Shown here piece by piece: positions 3,532 through 58,284 of a DNA stretch of 64,000 nucleotides. Within the stretch, counting starts at the first letter, position 1. Each line of letters opens with the position of its first letter. The DNA comes from Candidatus Shapirobacteria bacterium (GTDB lineage Bacteria; Patescibacteriota; Microgenomatia; UBA12405), in the NCBI GenBank assembly GCA_016188545.1, contig JACPHO010000001.1, forward strand, positions 270,546-334,545, read 5' to 3'. Under the pieces are notes generated by a model that worked only from the letters and a program-made list of their open reading frames with translations, was not told the DNA's origin and ran no database searches. A program made the translations under genes and the position numbers.

Positions 3532-3578
3532 ATATGTTTTTACTTTTAACTTTTTACTTTTAACTTTTTCTCGCTTCC
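3532..3578 (+). repeat. Tandem ACTTTTAACTTTTT intergenic repeats
   Basis: tttttacttttaactttttacttttaactttttc directly upstream of an ATG. Confidence 0.4.
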
Positions 3579-4783: not shown

Positions 4784-6053
4784 TTCTGCTTTGAGACAGG
4801 CCTCTGGTAACGGCTGTTAAATCTTCATCCACTACAACTTTTGCTTGGGGAAATTTCTCATCTAATATAACTGACACAAAGTTGCTTCTGGCTGCTCCAC
4901 CAACTCGGAATACTACATCTACTTCTTGTTCTGACACATCGGCTTTTTTCAAACATTCATCAATTGATTCCACTACTGCATTGCGTAGTTTGTGCTCAGC
5001 GGTTTTTAGTTCATGCCTTTCAACTTGAACATTCAGTTTTACTTTTTCTAAGTCAACGTTAATTGTTGCTGTCGATGTTGACTGGAGTGTTTTTTTTACC
5101 TTCTCAACCGCCTTTAGTATTACAGGAATAGCGCCTGTTTCAAGAGTGTCAATAAGTAATGCGACCCCGTTTTTATCTGTGCAGTCATGTTTTCGCGAGA
5201 TCTCATTCAAGGCACGAATATAACTTGGTTGTACAAAATCACTTAATCTATGAACATCGGGAAGTGAGTCTAATAAAATATTAGGTAACCTGGATCCTTT
5301 GTCATAAGTTGCCTTACCACCAAGTTGAGGCACCACTTTCCGTTCAAAAAGTGATTTGTCAACGTCAAGTCCACCTATCTCTCTACCAGCAGAACTTGTT
5401 ACTTGCATTACCCTTCCGGATTTTTTTGAAATCAACGCGACATCTGTTGTCCCTCCACCAATATCTAGTACAAGTCCATTATTGATTATATCACTATCAT
5501 CTACTAGTCCTCTTGCTGCTGCAACTGGTTCTTCTAGAAAATCAATTCGGTCTATTCCAGCAGTTTTAGCAGCACTTTTAAGACGTTCAAATGCTAATTC
5601 CTGCTCTGAGATATTTTGTCCAAACTTTACAGGTCTGCCTACAATTGCCTCTGTTATTGGCGTGCCAGTTTTGGCTATAACAGATTGATTTAGTTCTATA
5701 AATATTCTTGAAGCTATATCCACAGTTGATACATAAGCTTTTGGCCATGCACCATCAACTTGTGTCTCTGCCCACAATAAACTTCCATCACAAGTCTCGT
5801 GAGGTATACCTTTCTTTATATTTGGCACCAAAACCTGCATTTCTTTCTTTGGGTTTACTGGTAGGTGTGAAAGATAACTTTCAATTGCACCTCTACCAGC
5901 AGTAAACTCAACTTGTTTACCATCAAAATATGCATGGACATCAGATGGAGTTGTGTCTCCTCCTTGAACTAGTATTGTCTCAGTCTGTCCATCATGATTA
6001 ATAGCGACTGAAGAGTTTGAAGTTCCAAAGTCTATACCAACAATTCTTTTCAC
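4773..6053 (-). CDS. Hsp70-family ATPase, nucleotide-binding domain only (YegD-like), no substrate-binding domain
   Basis: GIDFGTSNSSVA (Hsp70 phosphate-1) and DIGGGTTDVALIS (phosphate-2) motifs. 426 aa, GTG start. Confidence 0.6.
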   Translation of the reverse strand: MKRIVGIDFGTSNSSVAINHDGQTETILVQGGDTTPSDVHAYFDGKQVEFTAGRGAIESYLSHLPVNPKKEMQVLVPNIKKGIPHETCDGSLLWAETQVDGAWPKAYVSTVDIASRIFIELNQSVIAKTGTPITEAIVGRPVKFGQNISEQELAFERLKSAAKTAGIDRIDFLEEPVAAARGLVDDSDIINNGLVLDIGGGTTDVALISKKSGRVMQVTSSAGREIGGLDVDKSLFERKVVPQLGGKATYDKGSRLPNILLDSLPDVHRLSDFVQPSYIRALNEISRKHDCTDKNGVALLIDTLETGAIPVILKAVEKVKKTLQSTSTATINVDLEKVKLNVQVERHELKTAEHKLRNAVVESIDECLKKADVSEQEVDVVFRVGGAARSNFVSVILDEKFPQAKVVVDEDLTAVTRGLSQSRTTF

Positions 6054-26273: not shown

Positions 26274-26314
26274 TCTTTAAAACTTTATAACTTTCAACTT
26301 TATAAACTCATCAT
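26274..26314 (+). repeat. Intergenic ACTTTATAAC/ACTTTATAAACT motif upstream of rpsG
   Basis: ctttaaaactttataactttcaactttataaactcatcatATG. Confidence 0.45.
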
Positions 26315-32004: not shown

Positions 32005-32027
32005 ACGGGTTTCGACCCGTTTTTTAA
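32005..32027 (+). terminator. Rho-independent terminator
   Basis: ACGGGT-TTCG-ACCCGT followed by TTTTTT. Confidence 0.55.
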
Positions 32028-32044
32028 TGTTATTATTTACTAAT

Positions 32045-32079
32045 TAATTCTTAATTCCTAATTCTTAATTCCTAATTTC
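32045..32079 (+). repeat. Tandem heptamer tract (AATTCYT)n immediately upstream of fusA
   Basis: aattcttaattcctaattcttaattcctaatttct. Same element family at 42884-42921, 43587-43624 and 58250-58275. Confidence 0.55.
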
Positions 32080-32083
32080 TACT

Positions 32084-34189
32084 ATGGCCGACGCTATTAA
32101 GCTCTCCAAAAACCGCGATGTCAGCATGGATCATGTCCGTAACATCGGTATTATTGCCCATATTGACGGAGGTAAGACCACCACTACCGAACGTCTACTT
32201 TTCTATACAGGAAAAATTCACAAAATTGGTTCTGTTGATGCCGGTACTACTACTACCGACACCATGGTGCAGGAACGGGAGAGGGGAATTACTATCCAGT
32301 CAGCTTGCGTCACCACTTTTTGGCATGACTACCGCATCAACATTATCGATACTCCCGGCCATGTCGATTTTACTGCCGAGGTAGAACGTTCCCTACGTGT
32401 CCTCGACGGTGCTATCATGATTTTCGATGGCAATGCTGGGGTTCAAGCTCAATCCGAAACTGTTTGGCGTCAGGCCGACAAATACGGGGTGCCCCGTTTG
32501 GCTTTTGTCAACAAAATGGACAAAGTTGGTGCATCTTTCCAAGGTACTCTCGACTCCATCACTCAAAAACTTCACGCCCCAATTGTCGCCATGGTCTTAC
32601 CTCTTGGTGAAGAACATGCCCATGTTGGTGTCATCGACCTGATGGAAATGAAGATGATTGTCTACGATAAAGATCCTGAAGGTATGGAGTTCACCGTCAA
32701 AGATGTCACTCCCGATTATCTCGATGCTGCCAAAGCTGCTCGGGCCAAGATGGTTGAAAAAATCGCCGGAGAGGACGAACACCTTATGGAGAAATACCTT
32801 AGTGATGAGGAAATATCCATTCCAGAGCTTAAAAAAGCCCTTCGTAAAGCCACTATCGATCGTAAATTATTCCCAGTATTCTGTGGTGCTGCTTGGAGAA
32901 ACAAAGGAATCCATCCAATTTTGGATGCAATTGTTGACTATCTGCCTTCCCCCACTGACCTTCCCCCGATAGAAGGGTTTGATATCAATACTCAAGAAAA
33001 AATTACCAGAAAACCGATCAAGTCAGAACCACTATCAGCCATGCTTTTTAAAGTCCAGTCCGATGCTCATGTCGGAACACTTTCCTACGTCCGTGTCTAT
33101 TCCGGTACTATCAGATCAGGTTCTGATGTCTACAATGCTACCAAGCAAAAGACCGAAAGAATCGGTCGTTTGTTGCTAATGCATGCTGACAAAAGAGAGG
33201 GGATCGAAGAGGGTTTTGCTGGAGAAATAATTGCCTGTATCGGTCTAAAAGAGTCCACCACCGGTGATACACTTTGTGACAAAAGTGCCCCAATTTCTCT
33301 ATCTCCAATTCAATTCTCCGAACCAGTTATCTCCCTTTCAATCGAACCTGAAACTGCCGATGATCAGGAGAAAATGGGTGCAGCCCTCAACCGTCTTGCT
33401 ATCGAGGATCCCACCTTCAAAGTTTCCTACAACCACGAAACCGGTCAGACCATTATCGCCGGTATGGGCGAACTTTACCTCGATATTATCGTCGATCGTC
33501 TTCGCCGAGAATTCAACGTCGGCGTCAAGACCGGTGCCCCCCAAGTTGCTTATCGCGAAACTATTTCCGAAAATGCCGAAGGTGAGGGTAAATACATTCA
33601 TCAGTCCGGTGGTCATGGTCAGTATGGTCATTGTAAAGTTAAGGTCGAACCAAAAAACCGTGGCGAAGGTATCGAGTTCGTCAACGGTATCAAGGGTGGG
33701 GTCATTCCTGCCAACTTCGTCCCCGCCATCGAAAAGGGTGTTCGCGAAGCCCTTGCCAAGGGTATCATCGCTGGCTATCCCTGTACCGATATCAAAGTCA
33801 CTGTCTATGATGGTTCCTACCACGATGTTGACTCATCAGAAGCCGCTTTCAAACTAGCTGGTTCTTATGCCATCAAAGACGCCTTCCAAAAAGCTCGACC
33901 ACTTGTACTAGAACCCATCATGAAGATGGAGGTCGCCACCCCATCCGAATTCCAAGGAACAGTTATTGGAGATCTTGCCGCCCGACGTGGTCAGGTTAGT
34001 GGAACCACCGATTCTATGGGTTTTACTACCATTATTGCCTTAATACCATTGGAAATGGTGCGAGGTTACGCTACTGTCATCCGTTCCCTCACTCAAGGAC
34101 GTGGTTCATTCTATATGGAACCGGCACAATACGATCCAGTACCCCGTGACGTTCAGGAGAAGTTGACCATCAAACCTGGAAAAGAATAG
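32084..34189 (+). CDS. fusA: Elongation factor G
   Basis: AHIDGGKTTTTE G1 and DTPGHVDF G3 motifs. 701 aa. Confidence 0.95.
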   Translation: MADAIKLSKNRDVSMDHVRNIGIIAHIDGGKTTTTERLLFYTGKIHKIGSVDAGTTTTDTMVQERERGITIQSACVTTFWHDYRINIIDTPGHVDFTAEVERSLRVLDGAIMIFDGNAGVQAQSETVWRQADKYGVPRLAFVNKMDKVGASFQGTLDSITQKLHAPIVAMVLPLGEEHAHVGVIDLMEMKMIVYDKDPEGMEFTVKDVTPDYLDAAKAARAKMVEKIAGEDEHLMEKYLSDEEISIPELKKALRKATIDRKLFPVFCGAAWRNKGIHPILDAIVDYLPSPTDLPPIEGFDINTQEKITRKPIKSEPLSAMLFKVQSDAHVGTLSYVRVYSGTIRSGSDVYNATKQKTERIGRLLLMHADKREGIEEGFAGEIIACIGLKESTTGDTLCDKSAPISLSPIQFSEPVISLSIEPETADDQEKMGAALNRLAIEDPTFKVSYNHETGQTIIAGMGELYLDIIVDRLRREFNVGVKTGAPQVAYRETISENAEGEGKYIHQSGGHGQYGHCKVKVEPKNRGEGIEFVNGIKGGVIPANFVPAIEKGVREALAKGIIAGYPCTDIKVTVYDGSYHDVDSSEAAFKLAGSYAIKDAFQKARPLVLEPIMKMEVATPSEFQGTVIGDLAARRGQVSGTTDSMGFTTIIALIPLEMVRGYATVIRSLTQGRGSFYMEPAQYDPVPRDVQEKLTIKPGKE

Positions 34190-34289
34190 GAATTTACCTA
34201 GAGCTTTCCGATGAAGACATGGTCATCTCTCACTGAATCTTTGGGCAGTTTGTGTTACAATTAATACTATTAATTAAGCGTTTAAAAAT

Positions 34290-34817
34290 ATGGCAAACAA
34301 CAGCGACAGAAGGATAGATAGACCAACTGATGTTTTGTATGTAATTAATGAAATAAACAGTGAACATGACGTGCCACCATCATATGTCTTAGCCCAAGAG
34401 TTAATAAATAAATATCCCAATTCACTCACGGTTATTGATCGGGATATAATTCCCCTTATCCTAAGTCGATCAGGTGACCCCAAATCACGAACTATATACA
34501 TCAATGATGTTGGCATTTTTATTTTAACCAGCAACCCTACTTTAGATGCCTCTGAGCAAGCGTGGAAAATGTTTAATGAAAACAATGCTATTGACCACAA
34601 ACTAGTATTAGTATCCAACAATAATGATGAATATATTCCTACAGGTGAATTTACCCAACAAACTGGGATTATTTCCATTACTCACTTAAATCTAGATCAA
34701 ATAAAAAATAAGCCAAGATCAAAAGACGCTAAGCTAATCAACGACATTCTTTCACAGGCTGATCGAAGAGGTAGGATGGCATTGCCTCCGTCGAGTAATT
34801 ACCTATCTCAAACATAG
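34290..34817 (+). CDS. Hypothetical protein (175 aa)
   Basis: ORF only. First gene of the fusA-tuf insertion. Confidence 0.35.
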   Translation: MANNSDRRIDRPTDVLYVINEINSEHDVPPSYVLAQELINKYPNSLTVIDRDIIPLILSRSGDPKSRTIYINDVGIFILTSNPTLDASEQAWKMFNENNAIDHKLVLVSNNNDEYIPTGEFTQQTGIISITHLNLDQIKNKPRSKDAKLINDILSQADRRGRMALPPSSNYLSQT

Positions 34818-34869
34818 CTCAGAATCCAATTTTGATGTAATATGTGTTATTAATCACAAAAAAAATAAA

Positions 34870-35382
34870 ATGATGGTTCTGGACATCGAGACAATATCCG
34901 CCACCTTAGGAAAATCAGTTGAAAAAGATAGGACTACCCTTGAAGGTCTGGTTATGTCTACAATGCTTGAATTATCAACACAATATCCAAAAGGCCTAGG
35001 TTTGGCTGCCGATGGTGACAATTTCTTGCTAGTGTCTCCACACGTTGATTCTCATGGTGAAGTTGTTTTAGCTACTGAAACTGGTGTCTATATTCTCGAA
35101 CAAGATAAATTAGATGCAAAAGCCCACAATCTCGACAGGATTGTTGGTGCCATCAGTGGTGCTATTACCACCGCCAAACAACTTGTCGCCAAAATTCCTC
35201 AAGACGACTACGAATCCCACCAAGATTTAAAAGATAATGGTTTATTTATCAACGCAGTAACACAAGTAAACATTGCTGATAAAGAATCACCAAATTTCCA
35301 AAAAATGGTTGAACTTGTTAAAGACATGTCAAAATTCAGAGCCTCAATTGACTCTGCCAGGCTCGCCACTACTGAGAAATAA
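34870..35382 (+). CDS. Hypothetical protein, paralog of N-half of 36905-37864
   Basis: About 50% identity with the 36905 product over about 150 aa. Example: LELSTQYPKGLGLAADGDNFLLVSPHV versus LELSTEYPKGLGLSGTEENFLLVSPHV. Confidence 0.45.
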   Translation: MMVLDIETISATLGKSVEKDRTTLEGLVMSTMLELSTQYPKGLGLAADGDNFLLVSPHVDSHGEVVLATETGVYILEQDKLDAKAHNLDRIVGAISGAITTAKQLVAKIPQDDYESHQDLKDNGLFINAVTQVNIADKESPNFQKMVELVKDMSKFRASIDSARLATTEK

Positions 35383-35419
35383 TTAAAAAATAAATCCTCT
35401 AATGGTCCGGTAGTTTTTA

Positions 35420-35851
35420 TTGACAATCACTTCACAAAGTCCTATAATACATCAAATGAAAACAAATCAAACTGAAAAAATCAGTGCACTTTTGGAACAT
35501 CAGAAATCTCTTGTCGAACAGTCCACAATTGTCGACTTTAAGTTAGCTTTGGAAAAATGGAAAATACTGATTGAAGTTGCTCGTGAATCAGAAGCTATTC
35601 ACAATAGCGGTGTCTGGATGACAAAAAAAGACGGTACTTTTGTCCATTTTGAATCAAACCATGGTTGCTTTATAAATGTAACTCAACATCCAGAACTTAA
35701 ACACCAATCATACAACTTCGCTCAAGGTGCCACAGGTGAACACTTTGTATTTGAATTCAACCTAGAACATACAGAAGTTGTCAGAGTTGAGTCCCATAAC
35801 ACAAAAAAAATGCAAAAAAAAATATCAGCTGGGAGGCTATACTGGTGGTGA
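35420..35851 (+). CDS. Hypothetical protein (143 aa). A8/A9 homopolymer runs near the 3' end.
   Basis: ORF only. Poly-A tracts at 35803-35822. Confidence 0.3.
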   Translation: MTITSQSPIIHQMKTNQTEKISALLEHQKSLVEQSTIVDFKLALEKWKILIEVARESEAIHNSGVWMTKKDGTFVHFESNHGCFINVTQHPELKHQSYNFAQGATGEHFVFEFNLEHTEVVRVESHNTKKMQKKISAGRLYWW

Positions 35852-35999
35852 CCATTTTAGGTTCATAACTTTAAAATCAACACAGACTATTGTTGAGGGT
35901 TTTAAAAGGGGATTTCCTGTGGAGGAATTTAAATCTTTGGTTGATAACATTGGGTCTCCAGAAAGTAATTAGGTAGCAAATCATATTCAGAAAAACTGT

Positions 36000-36013
36000 C
36001 CATCAAACCAGGT
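36000..36013 (+). repeat. 14-bp direct repeat CCATCAAACCAGGT (left copy)
   Basis: Exact copy also at 36715-36728. The pair brackets the RelB/RelE-like cassette. Confidence 0.5.
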
Positions 36014-36130
36014 GGTAAAAATAAATGTCATTTCCGCAATTCTTTTTGTCATTCCCATGAAGGCGGGAATCCAGATCTAAATCATCATCATTTTCCCCAG
36101 TTTTGAGCCTGTCGAAGTGGCGATAGTGTC

Positions 36131-36158
36131 TTGACAAATAATATCAAAATAGTATAAT
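36131..36158 (+). promoter_or_regulatory. Consensus sigma70 promoter TTGACA-16 bp-TATAAT. The antitoxin ATG lies 6 nt downstream, so the transcript is probably leaderless.
   Basis: -35 at 36131-36136, -10 at 36153-36158, ATG at 36165. Confidence 0.5.
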
Positions 36159-36164
36159 CATATT

Positions 36165-36434
36165 ATGAAAACGACTATCCAAGTCCCCGTCGACAAAAAT
36201 TTAAAAACAATTTACGAAAATAACGCTGATAAGTTAGGCTATTCTTCACTGCAAGAATATATTCGTGTGTTTCTGAAACAAAACTTAGGCCAGGACAATG
36301 TTGAATACTTAACTCCACAAGAAGAAAAAAAGCTTCTTCAAATGTCTCGCGCCTCCGATCGGGAAATTAAAAAAGGTAATTTCATCAAAAGTAGTAATAT
36401 TGACGAATTAATGGCATACTTAAACAGTGCCTGA
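36165..36434 (+). CDS. RelB/DinJ-family (ribbon-helix-helix) antitoxin
   Basis: N-terminal beta strand TIQVPVD followed by helices. 89 aa. 8-nt overlap with the downstream toxin. Confidence 0.55.
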   Translation: MKTTIQVPVDKNLKTIYENNADKLGYSSLQEYIRVFLKQNLGQDNVEYLTPQEEKKLLQMSRASDREIKKGNFIKSSNIDELMAYLNSA

Positions 36435-36699
36435 AATTATTTTTGATCGTTTATTTCGTCGTCATTTTGATTCACGTCAATTTTCCAAAAAAATTACAGC
36501 AAAATTTAATGAAAGAGTAAAAGTTTTCTCCCGTAATCCAGAATCAATCCTGCTTAATGACCATCCACTTAGAGGTAACCTAAGTGGTTATAGAGCATTT
36601 TCTATTACCAAAGATATCCGCGTGGTATATCAAATAATTGATGACAATCTTGTTCGTTTTCTAAATATCGGCACCCACAACCAGGTTTATGGAAAATAG
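36427..36699 (+). CDS. RelE/ParE-family type II toxin
   Basis: …LNDHPLRGNLSGYRAFSITKDIRVVYQIIDDNLVRFLNIGTHNQVYGK matches the RelE/ParE C-terminal pattern. GTG start. Confidence 0.65.
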   Translation: MPEIIFDRLFRRHFDSRQFSKKITAKFNERVKVFSRNPESILLNDHPLRGNLSGYRAFSITKDIRVVYQIIDDNLVRFLNIGTHNQVYGK

Positions 36700-36714
36700 A
36701 CCGAGAAAAGTCGC

Positions 36715-36728
36715 CCATCAAACCAGGT
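36715..36728 (+). repeat. 14-bp direct repeat CCATCAAACCAGGT (right copy)
   Basis: Exact match to 36000-36013. Lies 15 nt after the toxin stop. Confidence 0.5.
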
Positions 36729-36790
36729 AAGGAATAACCGCCAAAAACGTCATCGCGAGAAACGAAGTGACGAAGCAATCAGTGTATTAA

Positions 36791-36815
36791 GCCCCGGCTC
36801 CGGCCGGGGTTTTTG
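36791..36815 (+). terminator. Rho-independent terminator
   Basis: CCCCGGC-TCCG-GCCGGGG followed by TTTTT. Confidence 0.7.
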
Positions 36816-36904
36816 TGATATATTCTACTTATTACGGTTAAAGTATAAAATTTCAAACCGATAAATTGCTAGAAATATATTTTATATAAATTAATTATTC
36901 CAAT

Positions 36905-37864
36905 ATGCTAAATCTAGTCCCCGAAGAAGTGTCAGCTGTTATAAGTAGTTCAATAGAAAAAAATGTATCACCACAAGAAACAAAGGTGATGTCAAGGGTT
37001 CTTGAACTTTCGACTGAGTACCCAAAAGGATTGGGCTTGTCTGGAACTGAAGAAAATTTTTTACTCGTATCACCTCATGTGGGCGTAGACGGGAAATCTG
37101 TCCTGGCTACAGAAACAGGTATTTATATTATTAAACAGCAGAAATTAGAAGCAGGAGCAGGTAACAATGATCGAATGGTAAATGTGATTAGTGGTGCTGT
37201 CGAAGCGACTAAGAAACTCGTTTCTGCTATTCCTACTGATGATTTTGAGACAAAATTTCCACCCAAAGTAAATGGGCTTTTTGTCGAGTCAATAACCCAA
37301 GTCAATTTAGACGATCCAGATTCTGATACACATCAAGAGATGGTCGGGCTAATTAAAGAGATGTCACGATTTAGAGCGTCTGCTGATGCCAGGAGAAATG
37401 ATAATCAAACTGAAGAATCTGTGCGAACCACGAGTCCAGTGGAAGCTCTTGCAAAGGTTTTTATAGATACCTATGAAGATAGAGATGATGTTGCTGTCAA
37501 TAATTACTCTTGGGTTGCTAGTACTGACAGGTGGCATCCTGGACTATTTGAAATATTCGGAGATCACAATAAGCAACTAACTAATGCGATAAAAACCATT
37601 GACGCTGATCAAGATGGAAATCGTTTGTGGATTGTTGGCGGTGTCATGGCGGTTGTTAATTATCCAGATGAAATTTCTAAGTCTGGTGATGCTGGACTTA
37701 ATTTATATCAGGCTTTAAACGAAGCACGGCGCTCTAGCGATAAACGCTATGAAGGTGATATGAATGGGAGAAAGTTGGTGATCAACATTTGCCAAGTGGA
37801 ACAACCAGATCGAGTTCCAGAAAAACTAATCGAATCATTGTTGAGCAGTAGAAGCGAGTCATAG
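36905..37864 (+). CDS. Hypothetical protein (319 aa). The N-half is paralogous to 34870-35382. It also has a unique C-terminal ~160-aa domain.
   Basis: See paralog alignment. No recognisable motif. Confidence 0.45.
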   Translation: MLNLVPEEVSAVISSSIEKNVSPQETKVMSRVLELSTEYPKGLGLSGTEENFLLVSPHVGVDGKSVLATETGIYIIKQQKLEAGAGNNDRMVNVISGAVEATKKLVSAIPTDDFETKFPPKVNGLFVESITQVNLDDPDSDTHQEMVGLIKEMSRFRASADARRNDNQTEESVRTTSPVEALAKVFIDTYEDRDDVAVNNYSWVASTDRWHPGLFEIFGDHNKQLTNAIKTIDADQDGNRLWIVGGVMAVVNYPDEISKSGDAGLNLYQALNEARRSSDKRYEGDMNGRKLVINICQVEQPDRVPEKLIESLLSSRSES

Positions 37865-37955
37865 TGACATCTTTGCAATGAATGTGAATTTGTATCATTA
37901 AATAATTAAGAAATTAAGTGAAGCTCTAACTTAGAATTTTGAACATATTTCATTC

Positions 37956-37984
37956 TTGCAAACCCAAAACCTTACTGCTACAAT
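37956..37984 (+). promoter_or_regulatory. Sigma70-like promoter TTGCAA-17 bp-TACAAT upstream of tuf
   Basis: Read directly. Lies 80 nt upstream of the tuf ATG. Confidence 0.4.
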
Positions 37985-38064
37985 CTTAAAGCGTTTTTCG
38001 CTATACTTAATAGTTATAAATTCTTCCGACTTTGTCGTCGGATAATAAAATCAAATCAAAATAT

Positions 38065-39237
38065 ATGGCTGATGCATATAAAAGAACCAAACCCCATGTC
38101 AACGTCGGTACTATTGGTCACGTCGATCATGGTAAAACTACTTTAACCGCCGCAATTTCCAAAGTTCAAGGAAGTGCCAAATCTTACGCAGATATTGCTA
38201 AGGGTGGTACCGTCCGCGATGCTTCCAAGATTGTTACTATCGCTATCTCCCACATCGAATACGAAACCGATGCCCGTCATTATGCTCATATCGACTGTCC
38301 GGGACATGCCGACTATGTCAAGAACATGATTACCGGTGCTGCCCAAATGGATGGCGCTATTCTCGTTGTTTCTGCACCAGACGGTCCAATGCCTCAAACC
38401 AGAGAGCACGTTCTACTTGCCAAGCAAGTCAACGTTCCCTCTCTGGTCGTTTTCTTAAACAAAGTTGATTTGGTCACCGACCCAGAGTTCCTCGACCTAG
38501 TCGAAATGGAAATCCGTGATCTTCTTACCAAATACGGCTACCCAGGTGATACCACTCCAATCGTTCGTGGATCTGCTCTAAAGGCACTCAATGGCGAGGC
38601 TGAAGGTGTCGAATCTATCAAGAAATTGATGGAGGCACTTGATTCCTACATTCCCGAGCCCAAGCGCGAACTTGATCAGCCTTTCCTCATGCCTATTGAG
38701 GATGTCTTCTCCATCAAGGGTCGCGGTACTGTTGCTACCGGAAGAATCGAAAGGGGAGTTATCAAAGTCAACGAAGAAATCGAAATCGTCGGTCTTCGTG
38801 ATACCAAAAAAGCTGTTGTTACTGGTGTCGAAATGTTCCACAAATCACTTGACCAAGGTCAAGCTGGTGACAATGTCGGTATCCTGCTCCGCGGAGTTGA
38901 AAAAGACGATATCGAAAGGGGACAAGTGTTAGCCAAAATTGGCTCTATCACCCCTCACACCGAGTTCAAGGCTGAAGTTCTACTTCTCAAAAAAGAAGAA
39001 GGTGGTCGTCATACTCCAATCTTCAATGGTTATCGTCCCCAAGTCTTTTTGAAGACTACTGACGTTACCGGAGATCTTACTCTTCCAGAAGGTATGGAAA
39101 TGGTCATGCCAGGTGATAATGCAAATGTCGTCATCAAGCTGATTAAAGCTGTAGCCATGGAAAAGGGTCAACGCTTCGCTATCCGCGAAGGTGGATTGAC
39201 AGTTGGTGCCGGTGCTATCACCGAGATCATCAAATAA
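38065..39237 (+). CDS. tuf: Elongation factor Tu
   Basis: [31 protein letters not shown] motifs. ATG at 38065 preferred over the ORF-track TTG at 38032. Confidence 0.95.
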
Positions 39238-39249
39238 ATCGCTTTTTAA

Positions 39250-39280
39250 CCCCTCCCGTAGATTTCGGAGGGGTTTATAA
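39250..39280 (+). terminator. Terminator-like hairpin after tuf
   Basis: CCCCTCC-loop-GGAGGGG followed by a TTTAT weak U-tract. Confidence 0.45.
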
Positions 39281-39418
39281 AACAATTTATTTAAAGAGAT
39301 CGTTCTTTAAAAATATAGATTCTATATTTTATAAGTTGTTTTACAAAATTAAATTAAAAATTAAATAAATTACAAAATTCATTTTAAATTGAAAATTGTA
39401 AATTGAAAATTAAACTGT

Positions 39419-39730
39419 ATGGCCAAAGGCAATCGCATTAGGATCAAACTAAAATCCTTTGATCACCGTATTATCGATCAGGCAGCCAACAAGATTGTCG
39501 AAGCTGCCGTTACTGCCGGTGCTACCGTCCAAGGGCCAATTCCACTTCCCACCACCAAAAAAATTATCACTGTCCTCACCAGTCCTCATGGTGATAAAAA
39601 TGGTCGAGATCATTTTCAAGTTCTCTCCCACAAAAGACTTATTGATATTTACAATACCAGTTTACGCACTGTTGACAGCCTCCAACATTTGGATCTTCCC
39701 TCAGGTGTGGAAATAGAAATTAAAATGTAA
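39419..39730 (+). CDS. rpsJ: 30S ribosomal protein S10
   Basis: RIRIKLKSFDHRIIDQ…PLPT S10 signature. Confidence 0.92.
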   Translation: MAKGNRIRIKLKSFDHRIIDQAANKIVEAAVTAGATVQGPIPLPTTKKIITVLTSPHGDKNGRDHFQVLSHKRLIDIYNTSLRTVDSLQHLDLPSGVEIEIKM

Positions 39731-39732
39731 CA

Positions 39733-40353
39733 ATGATTTCCGGATTTATTGTCAAAAAATCAACCATGACCAATATCTATACCCCCGAGGGTAGAAGAGT
39801 TGGTGTCACCAAATGTGTAGTTTCACCATTAACTGTCACCCAGGTCAAGACCAAAGAAAAAGATGGCTACCAAGCTATCCAAGTCGCCTACGGTACTAAA
39901 AAACATCTTGATAAACCAGTCTCTGCCAAACTTGCCAAGCTTAAGTTAAAAATCAATCCTCAACACTTTACTGAATTTGACCTAACTACTGAAACAGTTC
40001 CCGAAGTTGGATCAAACATTGCTATCGATTCTGTTTTTACAGCTGGCGACAATGTTTCTGTATTTGGAGTTACCAAGGGTCGTGGCTTTGCTGGTGTTAT
40101 CAAAAGATACGGTTTCCGTCGTCAACCAGTTTCTGGTGGACAATCAGACCGGGTTCGTGCTCCAGGTTCTATTGGTGCTCAGACTCCGGGTAAGGTCATT
40201 AAAGGTAAAAAGATGCCAGGTCATTACGGAAATGTCACTAAACAAGTTAAGGGTCTAAAGATTGTCTCGGTTGATGTTGCTAAAAATGAAATAATTATTG
40301 ACGGGCCAATTCCAGGTCATATTAATTCTTGGGTAACCATTCTTAAAAAATAA
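39733..40353 (+). CDS. rplC: 50S ribosomal protein L3
   Basis: MISGFIVKKSTMTNIYT… matches MIGLVGKKVGMTRIF. Confidence 0.92.
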   Translation: MISGFIVKKSTMTNIYTPEGRRVGVTKCVVSPLTVTQVKTKEKDGYQAIQVAYGTKKHLDKPVSAKLAKLKLKINPQHFTEFDLTTETVPEVGSNIAIDSVFTAGDNVSVFGVTKGRGFAGVIKRYGFRRQPVSGGQSDRVRAPGSIGAQTPGKVIKGKKMPGHYGNVTKQVKGLKIVSVDVAKNEIIIDGPIPGHINSWVTILKK

Positions 40354-40355
40354 CT

Positions 40356-40988
40356 ATGAAAGCTCCTGTTTACAACCTTAAAGCTGAAAAAATCGAAGAA
40401 ATTACTCTCGATAAAGCAGTCTTTGGCACAGAAGTTAATGACAATACTATTGCTTTAGCTGTCCGTTCATATCTAGCCAACAAACGTTCCGCCAAAGCTA
40501 CTGTAAAAGAGCGAGGAGATGTTGCTGGTACGACCAAAAAAATGTATGCCCAAAAAGGTACAGGTCGAGCTCGTCATAGTACAGCCAAAGCAGGTATCTT
40601 TGTTGGAGGTGGTAGTGTTCATGGTCCTCAAGGAAATCAAAACTTTTCCGTTCCCCTCAATAAAAAATTCAAACAAAACGTTGTTAGATCGCTACTTTCT
40701 AAGTTTGCTTCCAATGATCGAGTTGTCGTTATTGACGACTTTTCATCCCTACCAGCCAAGACCAAATCAGCTTTTGAATTCATGGATCTTATGGAAAAAG
40801 CTTTACCTACCTTGGCTAAATCCAAAAAAATTGGTATTATCGTTGCCTCAGGCTCAACATCAGTCACCCGAGCATTCCGCAACATTCCAGGCTTCTCAGT
40901 GCTGACCAGTAGCTCACTTAATACCTATCAGTTATCACTCCAGAATATTCTAATATTTTCAAAGGAAGCCATAACTTCACTAAAATAA
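40356..40988 (+). CDS. rplD: 50S ribosomal protein L4
   Basis: Position and L4 core (…AQKGTGRARHS…). Confidence 0.9.
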   Translation: MKAPVYNLKAEKIEEITLDKAVFGTEVNDNTIALAVRSYLANKRSAKATVKERGDVAGTTKKMYAQKGTGRARHSTAKAGIFVGGGSVHGPQGNQNFSVPLNKKFKQNVVRSLLSKFASNDRVVVIDDFSSLPAKTKSAFEFMDLMEKALPTLAKSKKIGIIVASGSTSVTRAFRNIPGFSVLTSSSLNTYQLSLQNILIFSKEAITSLK

Positions 40989-40989
40989 C

Positions 40990-41295
40990 ATGGCCAAAAA
41001 TACAATCCAAAACACTATTCTTGCTCCCATCATTACCGAAAAATCTCTCACAGCACAAGCCCGCGGTGTCTATTCGTTTTGGGTAGGTGTCAAATCCAGT
41101 AAACCTCAAATCGTTTCCGCCTTCATTAAATTATTTTCTATTCCTGTTCTGTCAGTTAGAACCCAGAAACTTGTTGGTAAAGTAAAAGCTGATCCAAAAA
41201 GCCGAAAGGTTATTCACCGCTCAGATCGCAAAAGAGCTCTGATCACTATTGACAAAAAACAAAAGATCGAACTATTAAATCTCAATAGTAAATAA
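40990..41295 (+). CDS. rplW: 50S ribosomal protein L23
   Basis: Position and L23 motifs (ILAPIITEKS…). Confidence 0.9.
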   Translation: MAKNTIQNTILAPIITEKSLTAQARGVYSFWVGVKSSKPQIVSAFIKLFSIPVLSVRTQKLVGKVKADPKSRKVIHRSDRKRALITIDKKQKIELLNLNSK

Positions 41296-41296
41296 C

Positions 41297-42043
41297 ATGA
41301 AAATAAAATCTCTTTTTAAAATCAAAAAGAAAACCTCTGGTCGTGATGCACAAGGTCATGTTTCAGTCCGTCACCGCGGTGGAGAAGAGAAACGCTACAT
41401 TCGTCTCGTTGACTGGAAGAGATCAAATCACGATATTACTGGAAAGGTAGTTGCCATTGAGTACGATCCTAACCGTACTGCCAACCTCGCCCTAGTTGTC
41501 TACCAAAATGGTGCCAAGGCATACATCCTCGCATCTTCAAATCTCAAAGTAGATGACATCGTCGTCGCCTCTGAAAGCGCCGCGATTAAAGATGGTAATC
41601 GTCTTCCCCTTCGTAATATTCCTGTTGGTGTTGCTATTCACGGACTTGAATTCCAACCCGGTAGTGGTGCCCAACTCGTCAAGAGTGCTGGCTCTGCCGC
41701 CTTTATTCAAAGTATTGATGGTCAAAAAGTCACCATCAAGCTTCCCTCCGGTGAACTTCGTCTCTTCAATGCTGAGACCTGGGCAACCATCGGACAGCTC
41801 AGCAATGCTGACCATTCAAATCAAAAACTGTCCTTAGCCGGTGACTCCCGACATCGCGGAATCCGTCCATCAGTTCGAGGTGTGGCTATGAATCCTCACG
41901 CCCATCCGCACGGAGGAGGCGAGGGTAAGTCAAGTATCGGTATGAATCCCAAGACTCCCTGGGGTAAGCCAGCCCTTGGTTATCGTACTCGCAAGCGCAA
42001 AAATGCCTCCAACAAATTTATTGTTCAACGTCGAAAAAAATAA
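41297..42043 (+). CDS. rplB: 50S ribosomal protein L2
   Basis: …RHRGGEEKRYIRLVDWKR… and …HPHGGGEGK… L2 motifs. Confidence 0.92.
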   Translation: MKIKSLFKIKKKTSGRDAQGHVSVRHRGGEEKRYIRLVDWKRSNHDITGKVVAIEYDPNRTANLALVVYQNGAKAYILASSNLKVDDIVVASESAAIKDGNRLPLRNIPVGVAIHGLEFQPGSGAQLVKSAGSAAFIQSIDGQKVTIKLPSGELRLFNAETWATIGQLSNADHSNQKLSLAGDSRHRGIRPSVRGVAMNPHAHPHGGGEGKSSIGMNPKTPWGKPALGYRTRKRKNASNKFIVQRRKK

Positions 42044-42089
42044 TATAACTTTTCAAACTTTTAACTTTATAAACTTTACAAACTAACAT
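42044..42089 (+). repeat. Intergenic motif AACTTTTAACTTTATAAACTTTACAAACTAACAT upstream of rpsS
   Basis: Consensus AACTTTAYAAACTTTACAAACTAACNTATG shared with 47272, 47774, 51345, 52947 and 46872. Confidence 0.5.
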
Positions 42090-42365
42090 ATGTCAAGAAG
42101 CTCTAAAAAAGGACCATATATCGACGCCAAGCTGCTTGTAAAAGCTGCCAAAATTCCCGCGTCCGAGGCTATCAAAACTTGGGCCCGCAAAAGCCAAATT
42201 GCTCCAGAATTTGTGGGACACAATTTTGCAGTCCACAACGGTAAAAAATTCATCAATGTTTTTGTCACTGAAGACATGGTCGGACACTATTTTGGTGAAT
42301 TCGCCGCCACTCGAACCTTCAAAGGTCATGGTCGTATTGTTAAGAGAGTTATTGAAAAAACCTAA
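42090..42365 (+). CDS. rpsS: 30S ribosomal protein S19
   Basis: …[14 protein letters not shown]… S19 signature. Confidence 0.92.
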
Positions 42366-42368
42366 TCT

Positions 42369-42860
42369 ATGGCTACAACTACCCAAAAAACTACTACTGT
42401 TAAGAAAACAACTGCTGTCAAAAAGACTGTAGCAAAAGTCGCTAAAGCCTCAACTTCCAAATTATCTACACCTAAAGTCGTTGAAGCGACAAGTGTCGCG
42501 CAAACCAGGCTCGGCCTGGCTAAGTATCTCAACAAGAACCTCAAAGTATCACCACGAAAACTTCGTTTGGTAGTTACCGCCGTCAAGGCACTTAACCCCC
42601 AAGATGCTCAGACTCGACTCAAGTTCACCAACACTAACGCTGCTCGTCTTCTCCACAAAACTATCCAAGATGCTATTGCTTCCGCTAAGAACAATCACCA
42701 CCTTGACTCTTCTACTCTTAAATTCACCGAAATGCGTGTTGATGAGGGTATGAAGATCAAGCGAATGGACAAATCTCATGGTTCCCGTTTTGCCAGAGGA
42801 ATCATTCAGAAACGACATAGTCGATTAGTTATCGTTTTATCTGGTACAATACAAAGCTAA
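42369..42860 (+). CDS. rplV: 50S ribosomal protein L22 (with K/T-rich N-terminal extension)
   Basis: L22 core after an approximately 45-aa low-complexity extension. Confidence 0.88.
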   Translation: MATTTQKTTTVKKTTAVKKTVAKVAKASTSKLSTPKVVEATSVAQTRLGLAKYLNKNLKVSPRKLRLVVTAVKALNPQDAQTRLKFTNTNAARLLHKTIQDAIASAKNNHHLDSSTLKFTEMRVDEGMKIKRMDKSHGSRFARGIIQKRHSRLVIVLSGTIQS

Positions 42861-42883
42861 CTTTGCAAATTATTTTATTAAAA

Positions 42884-42921
42884 ATTCCTAATTCCTAATT
42901 CCTAATTCTTAATTCCTAATT
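42884..42921 (+). repeat. Tandem heptamer tract (AATTCCT)n upstream of rpsC
   Basis: attcctaattcctaattcctaattcttaattcctaatt. The whole 42867-42929 element is about 90% identical to 43578-43628. Confidence 0.6.
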
Positions 42922-42929
42922 AATTAAAT

Positions 42930-43571
42930 ATGGGTAACAAAATCAATCCTATCGGTTTTAGACTAGAAACTGTCAAAAACAGTCCGCAGTGGCAGTCCTC
43001 TTGGTACGCAGACAAAAAGAAATATCCAATTCTTTTGCTTGAGGACAAGAAAATCCGTGATTTCATTCAGAAGAAACTAGGTTCAGCCGGTATTGTCACA
43101 ATCAGAATCGAACGTTCCGTTAAAAAACTCAAATTAATTTTGGTTGTTTCCCGCCCAGGTCTCGTTATCGGTCGTGGTGGTAAAGAGCTCGAAGCCCTTA
43201 AAAAAGATATCATTAAGATTATTCCCAAGACTCCAGGCAAACAAAACATCGACATTCAAGTCGAAGAGTTCAAATACGTCGATCTTTCTGCCAAGCTAAT
43301 TGCCGAGAAAATCGCTTTCCAACTCACCAAGAGAATGCCTTATCGCCGAGTCGTCCTTTCATCTATTGAAAAGACAATGGCTGCCGGAGCCAAAGGAATT
43401 AAAATCATTCTTGGTGGACGTATCAATGGAGCCGAGATTAGCCGAAGAGAAAAATTCTCACAAGGTAAAGTTCCCCTCTCTACCATCAGATCAAAAATTG
43501 ATTATGCCGAGTGTCCATCTTTGACTAGGTCGGGTTATATCGGTGTTAAAGTTTATCTCTGTCTAAGTTAG
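42930..43571 (+). CDS. rpsC: 30S ribosomal protein S3
   Basis: MGNKINPIGFRL… KH and S3-C domains. Confidence 0.92.
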   Translation: MGNKINPIGFRLETVKNSPQWQSSWYADKKKYPILLLEDKKIRDFIQKKLGSAGIVTIRIERSVKKLKLILVVSRPGLVIGRGGKELEALKKDIIKIIPKTPGKQNIDIQVEEFKYVDLSAKLIAEKIAFQLTKRMPYRRVVLSSIEKTMAAGAKGIKIILGGRINGAEISRREKFSQGKVPLSTIRSKIDYAECPSLTRSGYIGVKVYLCLS

Positions 43572-43586
43572 TTCTTTAAATTATTT

Positions 43587-43624
43587 TATTAAAAATTCCT
43601 AATTCCTAATTCTTAATTCCTAAT
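43587..43624 (+). repeat. Tandem heptamer tract (AATTCCT)n upstream of rplP
   Basis: aaattattttattaaaaattcctaattcctaattcttaattcctaattaat. Confidence 0.6.
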
Positions 43625-43628
43625 TAAT

Positions 43629-46871: not shown

Positions 46872-46929
46872 CGTTAAAATATTCCAACTTTTTAACTTTA
46901 AAAACTTTATAAACTTTACGAACTGACCT
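46872..46929 (+). repeat. Intergenic ACTTT-family motif upstream of rplR
   Basis: ccaactttttaactttaaaaactttataaactttacgaactgacctATG. Confidence 0.5.
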
Positions 46930-47271
46930 ATGATTACCAAAAATAGAACCCAAAGAAGACAAAATAGAGTCCGTGCCAAAATCGCCAAAAATATTGGTAT
47001 TCCTCGTCTTTCAATTTTTCGTACCAATGCTCATATTTGGGCTCAAATAATTGACGACAAGCACGGTAAAACTTTGGTTAGCAGCTCTAGTAAAGTACTG
47101 AAGACTAAGGGTACCAAGACCGAAGCCGCCATCAAAGTGGGTGAAGATATTGCCCTCAAAGCTTTAGACAAAAAAGTCCTCAATATCCGTTTTGATCGTG
47201 GTGCTTACAAATACCACGGTCGTGTTAAGGCACTTGCCGATGCCGCCAGGGACGGAGGTTTAAAATTCTAA
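46930..47271 (+). CDS. rplR: 50S ribosomal protein L18
   Basis: …RLSIFRTNAHIWAQIIDD… L18 signature. Confidence 0.9.
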   Translation: MITKNRTQRRQNRVRAKIAKNIGIPRLSIFRTNAHIWAQIIDDKHGKTLVSSSSKVLKTKGTKTEAAIKVGEDIALKALDKKVLNIRFDRGAYKYHGRVKALADAARDGGLKF

Positions 47272-47296
47272 CTTTATGAACTTTACAAACTAACCT
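47272..47296 (+). repeat. Intergenic motif CTTTATGAACTTTACAAACTAACCT upstream of rpsE
   Basis: Matches the consensus directly abutting the ATG. Confidence 0.5.
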
Positions 47297-47773
47297 ATGA
47301 CCAATACATTTGAAAACCAACAATTCAGAAAAATGGATCGACCTGAGTCAGAGTTTACTGACAAGGTAGTCGAAATCAAAAGAGTCAGTAAAAAAACTAA
47401 GGGTGGTAACCAGATCTCATTCACAGCCTTAGTTGTAAGTGGAGACAAAAAAGCCCGTGTGGGGGTAGGTCATTCACGTGCCAAGAGTGTTGCTGATGCT
47501 ATTCAAAAAGCAATTCAGAAAGCTCGCAAATCCATGATCAGTATCAACATCATCGACGGTACTATTGCTAAAACAATCAAATTAAAATTCAAAGGCGCCA
47601 TTATCCTCATGCGTCCCGGTAAACAGGGTAGTGGTCTTATCGCTGGAGGGCCAGTTCGATCAGTTGTCGAGCTAGCTGGTATCAAAGATATTGCCTCAAA
47701 AGTTATCGGCTCCAAGACCAAATCAGTCAATGTTTGGACTACCTTTAAAGCTCTAGAAATGTTAAAAAAATAA
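47297..47773 (+). CDS. rpsE: 30S ribosomal protein S5
   Basis: …VVEIKRVSKKTKGGNQISFTALVV… S5 dsRBD. Confidence 0.92.
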   Translation: MTNTFENQQFRKMDRPESEFTDKVVEIKRVSKKTKGGNQISFTALVVSGDKKARVGVGHSRAKSVADAIQKAIQKARKSMISINIIDGTIAKTIKLKFKGAIILMRPGKQGSGLIAGGPVRSVVELAGIKDIASKVIGSKTKSVNVWTTFKALEMLKK

Positions 47774-47808
47774 TTATTCCACCAACTTTTAACTTTACAA
47801 ACTAACTT
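47774..47808 (+). repeat. Intergenic motif CCAACTTTTAACTTTACAAACTAACTT upstream of rplO. No rpmD (L30) gene is present here.
   Basis: Only 35 nt separate rpsE from rplO. This is too short for rpmD. Confidence 0.5.
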
Positions 47809-48228
47809 ATGAATATTCAATCAAATCTACCTAAAACAACCGCCAAGTCTCAAAAAAGAGTCGGTCGTGGCTATGGTTCCGGTGTCGGCGGGCATACTAC
47901 CGGTCGAGGTTCCAAAGGGGACAAAGTCCGTGGCACCACCAAAATTACTTTTGATGGTACCAAAATCAAAAAAGGTTGGATTAAGAGAACTCCATTTCTT
48001 CGGGGAAAACACCGCACTCTAAAACTTAGCACTATTCCGGTATTCAATCTAACTCGTATTGATGCCATGTTTAAAGTCGGTGCTACTGTAGATCCTAAAG
48101 CATTAAATTGCCAATACGCCAAAATATTATCCGGAGGTTCCCTCACCAAAGCCCTTAACTTCAAAGGTTTGCTATATTCAGAATCTGCCAAGAAAGCAAT
48201 ATTAGCTGCGGGTGGTAAGATAGATTAA
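47809..48228 (+). CDS. rplO: 50S ribosomal protein L15
   Basis: …KRVGRGYGSGVGGHTTGRGSKG… L15 signature. Confidence 0.92.
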   Translation: MNIQSNLPKTTAKSQKRVGRGYGSGVGGHTTGRGSKGDKVRGTTKITFDGTKIKKGWIKRTPFLRGKHRTLKLSTIPVFNLTRIDAMFKVGATVDPKALNCQYAKILSGGSLTKALNFKGLLYSESAKKAILAAGGKID

Positions 48229-51344: not shown

Positions 51345-51384
51345 TCAATAACTTTACAAACTTTTTAACTTTATAAACTAATCT
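51345..51384 (+). repeat. Intergenic motif AACTTTACAAACTTTTTAACTTTATAAACTAATCT upstream of rpsD
   Basis: Matches the consensus. Confidence 0.5.
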
Positions 51385-52946: not shown

Positions 52947-53000
52947 TTACATCCAACTTTATAAACCTTACAAACTTTCAAACTTCATAAACTATTTCTC
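52947..53000 (+). repeat. Intergenic ACTTT-family motif upstream of rplQ
   Basis: atccaactttataaaccttacaaactttcaaacttcataaactatttctcATG. Confidence 0.5.
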
Positions 53001-57216: not shown

Positions 57217-57358
57217 CGAATTGTCGGGCTTGCCTCGACGTAGCTTGAAGAGCGAAGTCGGGTTGTACCTCGACGTAGTTTTAACGAAGTCGGGTTGTAC
57301 CTCGACGTAGTTTTAACGAAGTCGGGTTGTACCTCGACGTAGTTTTAACGAAGTCGGG
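57217..57358 (+). repeat. Tandem direct repeat array with a 32-bp unit TTGTACCTCGACGTAGTTTTAACGAAGTCGGG. There are three exact copies, one degenerate 35-bp copy and a 12-bp partial copy. The array abuts the 3' end of tRNA-Pro and overlaps it by 5 nt.
   Basis: Copies at 57264-57295, 57296-57327, 57328-57359. Degenerate copy at 57229-57263. Partial copy at 57217-57228. No spacers. Confidence 0.8.
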
Positions 57359-57427
57359 AATACAGGATTCGAACCTGCAACCTCGCGCACCCCATGCGCG
57401 CGCGCTAGCCAATTGCGCCAATCCCCG
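57354..57427 (-). tRNA. tRNA-Pro (anticodon GGG)
   Basis: 74-nt cloverleaf folded by hand. C1:G72 pair and A73 discriminator (bacterial tRNA-Pro identity). U8, A14, G18G19. GTTCGAATC T-loop. Anticodon loop AU-GGG-GU with G37. No encoded CCA. Confidence 0.85.
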
Positions 57428-58184: not shown

Positions 58185-58249
58185 CCATAGCTTCGCCTTT
58201 TCTTCGGTTCTCCTCCTTGACTTGATATAGTCCATATTGTTATTACTAT

Positions 58250-58275
58250 ATTAGAAATTAAATTCTTAATTGTTA
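58250..58275 (+). repeat. AATTCTTAATT-type element upstream of recA
   Basis: aaattaaattcttaattgttaattaac, related to the heptamer tracts. Confidence 0.35.
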
Positions 58276-58284
58276 ATTAACAAA

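Follow-up and report, generated by a model that had tools for sequence, protein, structure and literature searches.

Heptamer repeat leaders before fusA, rpsC and rplP in a Shapirobacteria genome and their possible role in initiation without a Shine-Dalgarno sequence

What are the short tandem repeats that directly precede the genes fusA, rpsC and rplP in a member of Candidatus Shapirobacteria, and could they take part in the translation of these genes? The question arises from a stretch of 64,000 nucleotides (contig JACPHO010000001.1, positions 270,546 to 334,545 of the forward strand), hereafter the window, in which a sequence-only reading had noticed (AATTCCT)n elements upstream of the three genes. 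A read-out of the sequence confirmed tracts of the heptamer AATTCYT, which adjoin the three start codons. How start codons are found without a Shine-Dalgarno (SD) sequence is poorly understood outside the Bacteroidetes and essentially unstudied in the Candidate Phyla Radiation (CPR). With a probability of about one half, we consider that the tracts are slippage-born, copy-pasted, unstructured and start-codon-free leaders, which would allow initiation independent of an SD sequence and relax translational coupling.

The heptamer tracts and their nearest relatives

The fusA element (32030-32083, plus strand, as all elements described here) consists of the head TTATTATTTACTAATT, five heptamers in the order AATTCTT AATTCCT AATTCTT AATTCCT AATTTCT (32046-32080), which is the number given in the sequence-only reading, and the tail ACT, followed by the ATG at 32084. 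The rpsC element (42861-42929) takes up the 69 nt that separate the stop codon of rplV (42858-42860) from rpsC and comprises a head (42867-42882), a tract of 5.6 heptamers, (AATTCCT)3 AATTCTT AATTCCT AATT (42883-42921), and the 8-nt tail AATTAAAT in front of the ATG at 42930. In the 57 nt that follow the stop codon of rpsC (43569-43571), the rplP element (43572-43628) has its head at 43578-43593 and a tract of 4.6 heptamers, (AATTCCT)2 AATTCTT AATTCCT AATT (43594-43625), which is separated by the tail AAT from the ATG at 43629. The arrays therefore end 3 nt (fusA), 8 nt (rpsC) and 3 nt (rplP) before the start codon, in forward orientation and overlapping the position of a ribosome-binding site. 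Tandem Repeats Finder (TRF) reported 4.9, 5.6 and 4.6 copies, respectively, with 88-93% matches, and all three tracts are tandem repeats of a 5-11 nt unit beyond chance, i.e. heptanucleotide long simple sequence repeats (LSSRs). The flanking genes were assigned by Pfam to EF-G, S3, L16, L22 and RecA.

A search with the 14-mer AATTCCTAATTCCT, allowing up to one mismatch, gave 11 matches, all on the plus strand and all within the three tracts, at a shuffle expectation of 0.05. The rpsC and rplP copies have in common the exact 22-nt junction between head and array, AAATTATTTTATTAAAAATTCC (2 matches in the window, 0.00 expected); their heads are identical and their arrays differ by exactly one unit, so that the near-identity claimed for them holds. 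The head of the fusA copy, ATTATTTACTAATTAATTC, is recognisably related to the other two in a three-way alignment. From the identical junction and the related fusA head we conclude that the three tracts, judged by their sequence, represent a single element, about 50-65 nt in length, and not three independent microsatellites. Its anatomy is a short A/T head, four to six heptamers and a tail of 3-8 nt, which abuts the start codon. The relative that had been proposed before recA is present (58261-58281) but weak, with about three degenerate units (AATTCTT AATTGTT AATTAAC); it is preceded by a promoter-like site (58222-58249) and followed by the probable start of recA, for which we infer GTG 58285 or TTG 58270.

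Related RpsC proteins place the window in Candidatus Shapirobacteria (Patescibacteria, CPR). The origin of the spacers becomes apparent from a comparison with the nearest relatives, loci (L081-L088; other loci are likewise designated by L numbers) with 95-98% identity in RpsC and 83-92% identity at the DNA level. The gap between rplV and rpsC is 69 nt in the window vs 3 nt in the relatives (including L082, L083 and L086), and that between rpsC and rplP is 57 nt vs 2-4 nt in L081-L088, which supports the earlier remark that these spacers of the S10 operon are unusual. Since the closest relatives have such short gaps there, we conclude from the alignments that the rpsC and rplP elements are recent lineage-specific insertions between otherwise tightly coupled cistrons. 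At fusA, the spacer in L082 is of similar length but of unrelated sequence downstream of a conserved, terminator-like hairpin with a T-run (ACGGGTTTCGACCCGT + TTTTTT, 32005-32026), which lies directly upstream of the fusA element in the window; here the element has overwritten a pre-existing leader of similar length. The same element sequence is found at several junctions of the window genome, and the sister species are without it. An exact-protein look-up of RpsC revealed no second contig of the window species, its RpsC cluster having a single member (MBI2464869.1). The insertions are also a warning for annotation: abnormal S10/spc spacers in metagenome-assembled genomes of the CPR are genuine and specific to a lineage, and do not stem from misassembly. 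The near-identical ribosomal protein (r-protein) operons, with coupled junctions of 2-4 nt on the one hand and repeat leaders of 25-70 nt on the other, moreover represent a natural experiment.

Start-proximal arrays in the window and across Shapirobacteria

In the window as well as in the clade, the heptamers form part of a broader class of short tandem repeats close to gene starts, with units of 7-9 nt that are mostly devoid of G on the mRNA strand; this had been overlooked in the earlier reading. TRF and a listing of upstream regions showed that many genes of the window are preceded by G-free short tandem repeats. One of these families, with the nonamer AACTTTAYA as its unit (15 matches, all on the plus strand, vs 0.57 expected), is located before rpsG, rpsS, rplR, rpsE, rplO, rpsD and rplQ. 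Within the r-protein operons, heptamers are thus found at rplV-rpsC and rpsC-rplP, and nonamer arrays at seven further junctions. The array before rpsG (26275-26305, ATG 26315) is built from the 8/9-mer (A)ACTTTATAA and represents a sister family. Those before rpsS (42047-42084, 4.4 copies, ATG 42090), rplR (46894-46924, ATG 46930), rpsE (47270-47291, ATG 47297), rplO (AACTTTTAACTTTACAAACT, 47785-47803, ATG 47809) and rpsD (51350-51379, ATG 51385) again lie in expanded gaps, of 46 nt vs 1 nt in L081-L083 between rplB and rpsS, and of 58 vs 6, 25 vs 8, 35 vs 9 and 40 vs 11 nt, respectively, in comparison with L082; the array before rplQ (52955-52993, ATG 53001) has 4.4 copies. In the relatives, the gaps at the nonamer junctions measure 1-11 nt (18 nt before rplQ), and none of them is expanded in L081-L083. 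A single AACTTTAYA-type copy (aactttataactaaatt) forms the native rpsQ-rplN junction in L082.

Further units of the window are a TTTTTAC heptamer (1369-1398), which leaves 9 nt to the ATG at 1408, the probable start of ftsK, a TTTTAAC heptamer (3537-3569, 4.6 copies) at the same distance from a gene with a helix-turn-helix domain (ATG 3579), and repeats of the 7-8-mers AAATTAA/AAATTGA in the last 70 nt before rpsJ (39345-39414, ATG 39419), downstream of the tuf terminator. As a side observation on the gene order, no rpmD (L30) lies between rpsE and rplO (47297-48228), neither in the window nor in L081-L083, and this arrangement is consistent with the absence of L30 that has been reported for CPR bacteria.

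A junction-by-genome matrix of 56 Shapirobacteria loci showed gaps of 1-10 nt as a rule. Many junctions are expanded at once in a few genomes (the window, L003, L006 and L007), and one or two in others (L004, L005, L008, L017, L020, L026, L030, L036 and L045). The repeat units are species-specific (AATTCCT, AACTTTAYA, TAATCTN, AAATTAAAA and AATGGTT, also AAATTAA), and the AACTTTAYA unit recurs in separate, distant lineages. The junctions before rpsS, rplP, rplN, rplR and rpsD were hit recurrently in independent lineages. In a neighbour-joining tree of concatenated r-proteins, the array-bearing genomes are scattered and have sister taxa without arrays, from which we conclude that arrays have been gained or lost repeatedly.

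The position of the arrays was surveyed in 810 kb from 50 Shapirobacteria loci for periods of 6-12 nt. Although intergenic DNA makes up 7.8% of this sequence, 41 of the 76 arrays are intergenic. For 40 of these a gene was called on either side, and each of them is closely followed by a gene start (40/40). The arrays end at a median distance of 7 nt, and in most cases ≤13 nt, from the next start; their distance from the preceding stop codon is variable. Where spacers are long enough to discriminate, eight of nine arrays are start-proximal. The sequence-only reading had named a random intergenic placement as the outcome that would speak against its elements; because the arrays end so close to starts across the clade, a positional bias to gene starts is what we find.

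The exception among the nine is the 5′ arm of a palindrome in L003 (Ca. Shapirobacteria JAGORQ010000002.1), where an element of about 60-115 nt precedes rpsS, rplP, rplN, rplF, rplR, rpsE, rplO and rpsD. Its arms are heptamer arrays (AACCATT... / ...AATGGTT), the 3′ arm carrying several ATGs just before the true start, and its predicted hairpins reach −14 to −17 kcal/mol in seven of eight cases and −8.6 kcal/mol at rplN (shuffles −5 to −11 kcal/mol). The elements of the window have neither a minus-strand partner nor a stable fold and are in this respect no REP- or MITE-like palindromes. Small dispersed repeats in intra-operon spacers with lineage-variable copy number are also known as MIRU in Mycobacterium, units of 46-101 bp whose small open reading frames (ORFs) overlap the stop and start codons on either side, and as REP/BIME in enterobacteria, where REPs are palindromic and located 3′ of genes. 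The window elements differ from these: they are arrays of a 7-mer, form no palindrome and are fixed at the start of the following gene; their L003 relatives are palindromic.

These distributions can also be explained without any function. The arrays would then be neutral or selfish, i.e. microsatellite-type junk or tiny mobile elements at stop-start junctions, which are tolerated in an SD-independent, A/T-rich genome and whose proximity to starts reflects a seed or target of the form TAA-N3-8-ATG. This is the main rival of the leader hypothesis, and we regard it as possible, if rather unlikely. It accords with the array-free sister species and their 2-4 nt gaps, with units that differ between species and with the palindromic, MITE- or REP-like version at eight junctions of L003. 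Moreover, among the long simple sequence repeats (SSRs) of prokaryotes, heptamers are the commonest unit (Mrazek 2007, cited after PMC4679880). According to that source, LSSRs with units of 5-11 nt are mostly intergenic and sporadic in their distribution over the phyla, and slippage of the polymerase is given as their origin. Our arrays resemble them in their short head-to-tail units and their intergenic, sporadic occurrence; however, LSSRs in general lack a fixed distance to the start, whereas the clade arrays end a median of 7 nt before it.

Several observations speak against neutrality: eight of nine arrays abut the start codon even in roomy spacers, five junctions were hit repeatedly, AACTTTAYA recurs in distant lineages, and one orthologous spacer is in part more similar than its surroundings. 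The latter is the rplF-rplR spacer of L007 and L008, in which the first 40 nt or so (head and first units) are about 97% identical, whereas the flanking coding DNA is 75-80% identical, which indicates either constraint or recent transfer of this sequence. The nonamer/octamer array before rplR itself has four units in L007 vs three in L008.

Outside the clade, a 20-mer common to the three tracts was found in at least 120 unrelated metagenome contigs with GC contents of 0.25-0.68. The AATTCYT arrays of these contigs have 3-34 units and lie outside ORFs without exception, as their stop codons force them to. Their contexts are mixed, with both orientations, positions 5′ or 3′ of genes, sometimes inverted pairs and often compound arrays. 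In viral contigs, the 20-mer occurred at six loci and a control with permuted unit at six loci as well, three of them independent. A specific AATTCYT family across phyla was therefore rejected, provisionally, as the comparison relies on two control patterns and a different collection. Given the mixed contexts and a control that is about as frequent in viral contigs, the arrays of other phyla are provisionally regarded as generic heptanucleotide SSRs that fit the LSSR class, an observation which also favours the neutral explanation.

In one Bacteroidetes-like contig (L181, about 4788-4840), the spacer between rplJ and rplL holds an AATTCYT array, which follows immediately on a TATAAT and stops 30 nt short of the rplL ATG. 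The Bacteroidetes are an SD-poor phylum, and L181 shows this heptamer independently within an r-protein operon of a further phylum of that type. As a side observation, compound arrays with other heptamers or octamers were seen in L203, L116, L124, L130, L151 and L190/L200, with partners such as (ATAACTGA)n in L203, which contains TAACTGA, (TCTCGGT)n in a contig of 65% GC, (AATTTAC)n and (TTTCCAC)n. Such compound arrays of heptamers seem to be common across phyla.

A possible role in initiation without a Shine-Dalgarno sequence

The host provides a context in which initiation rarely involves an SD sequence. An SD-like 4-mer lies 4-13 nt upstream of the start in 5 of 78 window genes, and G amounts to 3-12% at positions −10 to −2 before the window genes; clade-wide, 11% of 1222 starts are SD-like. 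The motif AGGAGG is nevertheless enriched 20-fold before starts across the clade, e.g. before rpoA in several species, which is why a canonical anti-SD is probably present, but rarely used. No native pre-start motif (CCTAATCT) was established, the k-mer enrichment being dominated by upstream TAA stop codons (AAATAA etc.) and the rare AGGAGG.

The heptamer tracts are entirely free of G, and the repeat-bearing spacers lack an SD sequence. Since they are G-free, the tracts cannot contain AUG, GUG or UUG, and since 7 and 3 are coprime, they carry UAA in every frame. Folding of the mRNA, a check which the sequence-only reading had suggested, predicted that leader and start are nearly structure-free, with −0.7 to −5.8 kcal/mol over 76-105 nt. 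The tracts span positions of about −4 to −60, and the A/U-rich RNA that they are predicted to expose in single-stranded form lies where the 30S subunit can reach it. In this respect they resemble the A/U-rich enhancers or standby sites bound by S1, such as epsilon (UUAACUUUA) of the T7 gene 10 leader, and the leaders of SD-independent initiation in Bacteroidetes: predicted to be unstructured, they are G-poor and A/U-rich and lie directly upstream of a start with no SD pairing. The known enhancers differ in being single sequences that act together with an SD, whereas the window has tandem arrays without SD, for which S1 binding and enhancement are putative.

A sequence match to this system was found in the nonamer arrays. 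The exact 9-mer TTAACTTTA occurs seven times in the window (1.4 expected), and four of these copies lie inside the arrays before rpsS (42061), rplR (46892), rplO (47789) and rpsD (51365). The T7 gene 10 / pET leader contains an identical segment, known as the epsilon translational enhancer. The match should be read as a lead, not as a test.

Taken together, these features suggest how the tracts might act. On the polycistronic mRNA, a tract would form a single-stranded, A/U/C-rich initiation region devoid of start codons and with stop codons in all frames. A 30S subunit (probably via S1 or its platform) or a terminating ribosome might load on the tract and pick the first AUG, which would make the translation of the downstream cistron less reliant on stop-start coupling. 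The arrays may have been born by replication slippage of short junction sequences and have spread between junctions by recombination or by an unknown copy-paste process. If the repeats are functional, synthetic biology might make use of them as compact modules for initiation without an SD.

Several points weigh against such a putative role, which is inferred from position, composition and host context. The leader folds have z-scores of −0.4 to +1.4 and are not significantly less structured than dinucleotide shuffles; indeed, any A/T-rich insert would be unstructured. The arrays are dispensable, since the closest relatives translate the same genes with gaps of 2-4 nt, and their rapid gain and loss fits neutrality equally well. 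In the positional survey, nearly all scored arrays have one orientation and lie within r-protein operons, so that strand and direction of transcription are inseparable, and gene starts outside the r-protein set were taken from a crude ORF caller. The lack of G is not universal either: other species and the rpsJ leader of the window use G-containing, C-free units, and the L003 arrays even contain ATG. Arrays with more C than G outnumber the reverse by 23 vs 8, but the arrays within a genome are non-independent and the plus strand is C-rich overall (negative GC skew), which the arrays may simply mirror; we therefore make no claim of selection on the absence of G.

The closest known counterparts are direct repeats of the heptamer TAACTGA, which are found in some Cyanobacteria and Bacteroidetes and in marine Beggiatoaceae (MacGregor 2015, PMC4679880). 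In the Beggiatoaceae they lie within a few nucleotides of start codons, among them those of fusA and of the genes for L3, S4 and S1, and also occur internally in r-protein operons; most of the repeats are without SD, they are absent from close relatives, and S1, Csp (cold-shock protein) or CsrA were proposed as readers (PMC4679880). Our arrays resemble them in their proximity to starts, the mostly absent SD, the location at fusA and r-protein genes and inside operons, and the patchy phylogeny. They differ in the unit, which is AATTCYT in the window (besides AACTTTAYA nonamers and others), in the CPR host, in the shared non-repeat head and in the comparative data, which here show insertion between formerly coupled cistrons. 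The TAACTGA unit itself is not that of the window arrays; TAACTGA(A) repeats turned up just in the unrelated metagenome contig L203. Literature searches gave nothing relevant on the heptamer string itself and nothing on topic for Patescibacteria and SD sequences. From this we conclude that the window arrays belong to a known, mechanistically unexplained class of start-proximal repeat leaders, for which the CPR host and the units are new.

A further step, which we consider doubtful, would be to see in these arrays a modular, portable alternative to the SD sequence in SD-poor lineages (Shapirobacteria, Bacteroidetes, Beggiatoaceae and some Cyanobacteria). A repeat-recognising component, for which S1, a cold-shock-type protein or a 16S segment complementary to AACUUUA/CCUAAUU are candidates, would bind the G-free units, and arrays copied between junctions would set cistron-specific translation rates in formerly coupled operons. 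If this were true, the arrays would be a mobile ribosome-landing cassette that co-evolves with its reader.

Promoters, copy number and RNA partners

The elements might instead act on transcription. As operon-internal promoters or UP-like elements, their A/T heads would provide the −10 element and the tracts the 5′ untranslated regions (UTRs) of new rpsC, rplP and fusA transcripts. This is suggested by the fusA element, which follows directly on the terminator-like hairpin, so that a promoter would be required in the 57 nt including the element if termination is efficient, by TATTTT- or TATTAA-like strings in the heads and by the TATAAT that precedes the L181 array. However, no sigma-70-like pair of hexamers with a 16-18 nt spacer overlaps 32030-32083, 42861-42929 or 43572-43628, and the number of promoter-like sites in the scanned region equals that of shuffled sequence (34 vs 35.0). 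The canonical sigma-70 consensus is in use in the same window, since perfect 12/12 promoters of the form TTGACA-N16/17-TATAAT are found at 35420-35448 and 36131-36158. Furthermore, no terminator precedes the rpsC or rplP elements, and two weak hits in nonamer arrays would place the −10 hexamer across the ATG. The earlier suggestion of operon-internal promoters thus found no support, and we regard this explanation as improbable. As a separate observation, the promoter at 36131-36158 comes to within 6 nt of the ATG at 36165, so that the mRNA of the small two-gene unit formed by 36165-36434 and 36427-36699 may be leaderless or nearly so.

A variable number of heptamers had further been interpreted as slippage-prone and possibly phase-variable. 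The first part of this interpretation stands, as copy numbers change by whole units, both between the paralogous rpsC and rplP copies (5.6 vs 4.6) and between the orthologous rplR arrays of L007 and L008 (4 vs 3), which makes slippage-type dynamics plausible. The second part would require that frequent changes of the heptamer number tune or switch expression, as in the 5′ UTR of hmw1A/hmw2A of Haemophilus influenzae, where (ATCTTTC)n is a proven heptamer SSR rheostat (PMC12721329). That system requires 11 or more repeats, which together with a G-rich arm form a long hairpin cut by RNase III, and it controls a surface adhesin (PMC12721329). The window tracts share with it the placement of heptamers in a 5′ leader, a position at which their number can influence expression, but they comprise 4-6 repeats, lack a predicted hairpin and precede housekeeping genes. 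The genes for EF-G, S3 and L16 are essential targets of fixed stoichiometry and do not belong to the surface, virulence or restriction functions typical of contingency SSRs. In addition, no change in array length was found among samples of one array-bearing species (P0087 = L004; L222-L227), whose DNA is 99.7-100% identical. Phase variation was not borne out and is, in our view, very improbable.

Similarly low is the likelihood that the tracts work as RNA decoys, with UCCU repeats mimicking the anti-SD, or as AU-rich endonuclease sites at which the polycistronic mRNA is split into separately stable pieces. In favour of these roles, the tracts are A/U-rich, predicted to be single-stranded and contain UCCU, and enzymes of the RNase E/Y type usually prefer single-stranded A/U-rich RNA. 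The resemblance to the anti-SD-containing 16S tail that had been proposed is, however, limited to 3-4 nt: the heptamer shares just CCU/UCCU with the canonical tail CACCUCCUUUCU, taken from the unrelated contig L187. A complementary AGGAATT tract is absent from the 64-kb window, the folds show no pairing partner, and SD-like motifs, with which a decoy would pair, are almost absent from this genome. As processing sites, the tracts are indistinguishable from any other AU-rich spacer.

Searches for known RNA families gave no hit at the arrays. At the gathering score, Rfam recognised tRNA-Pro alone in the whole window, and with E values up to 1 the sole match in 31500-53200 was a sub-threshold one to RsmY, away from the arrays. 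This match (36717-36812; 22.6 bits vs a gathering score of 57, E = 0.079) lies just upstream of a terminator-like hairpin (36796-36811) and is probably due to chance.

The tRNA-Pro(GGG) gene (57353-57427, minus strand) is itself accompanied by a tandem repeat of a different type. A perfect 32-nt unit (CGAAGTCGGGTTGTACCTCGACGTAGTTTTAA) is present in 3.3 copies with 100% identity at 57253-57358, where it abuts the 3′ end of the gene, with a diverged extra unit at about 57229-57252. Each 32-nt unit starts with the same 10 nt as the 3′ acceptor strand of the tRNA, and the units could represent reiterated attachment-site-like or terminator-like sequences.

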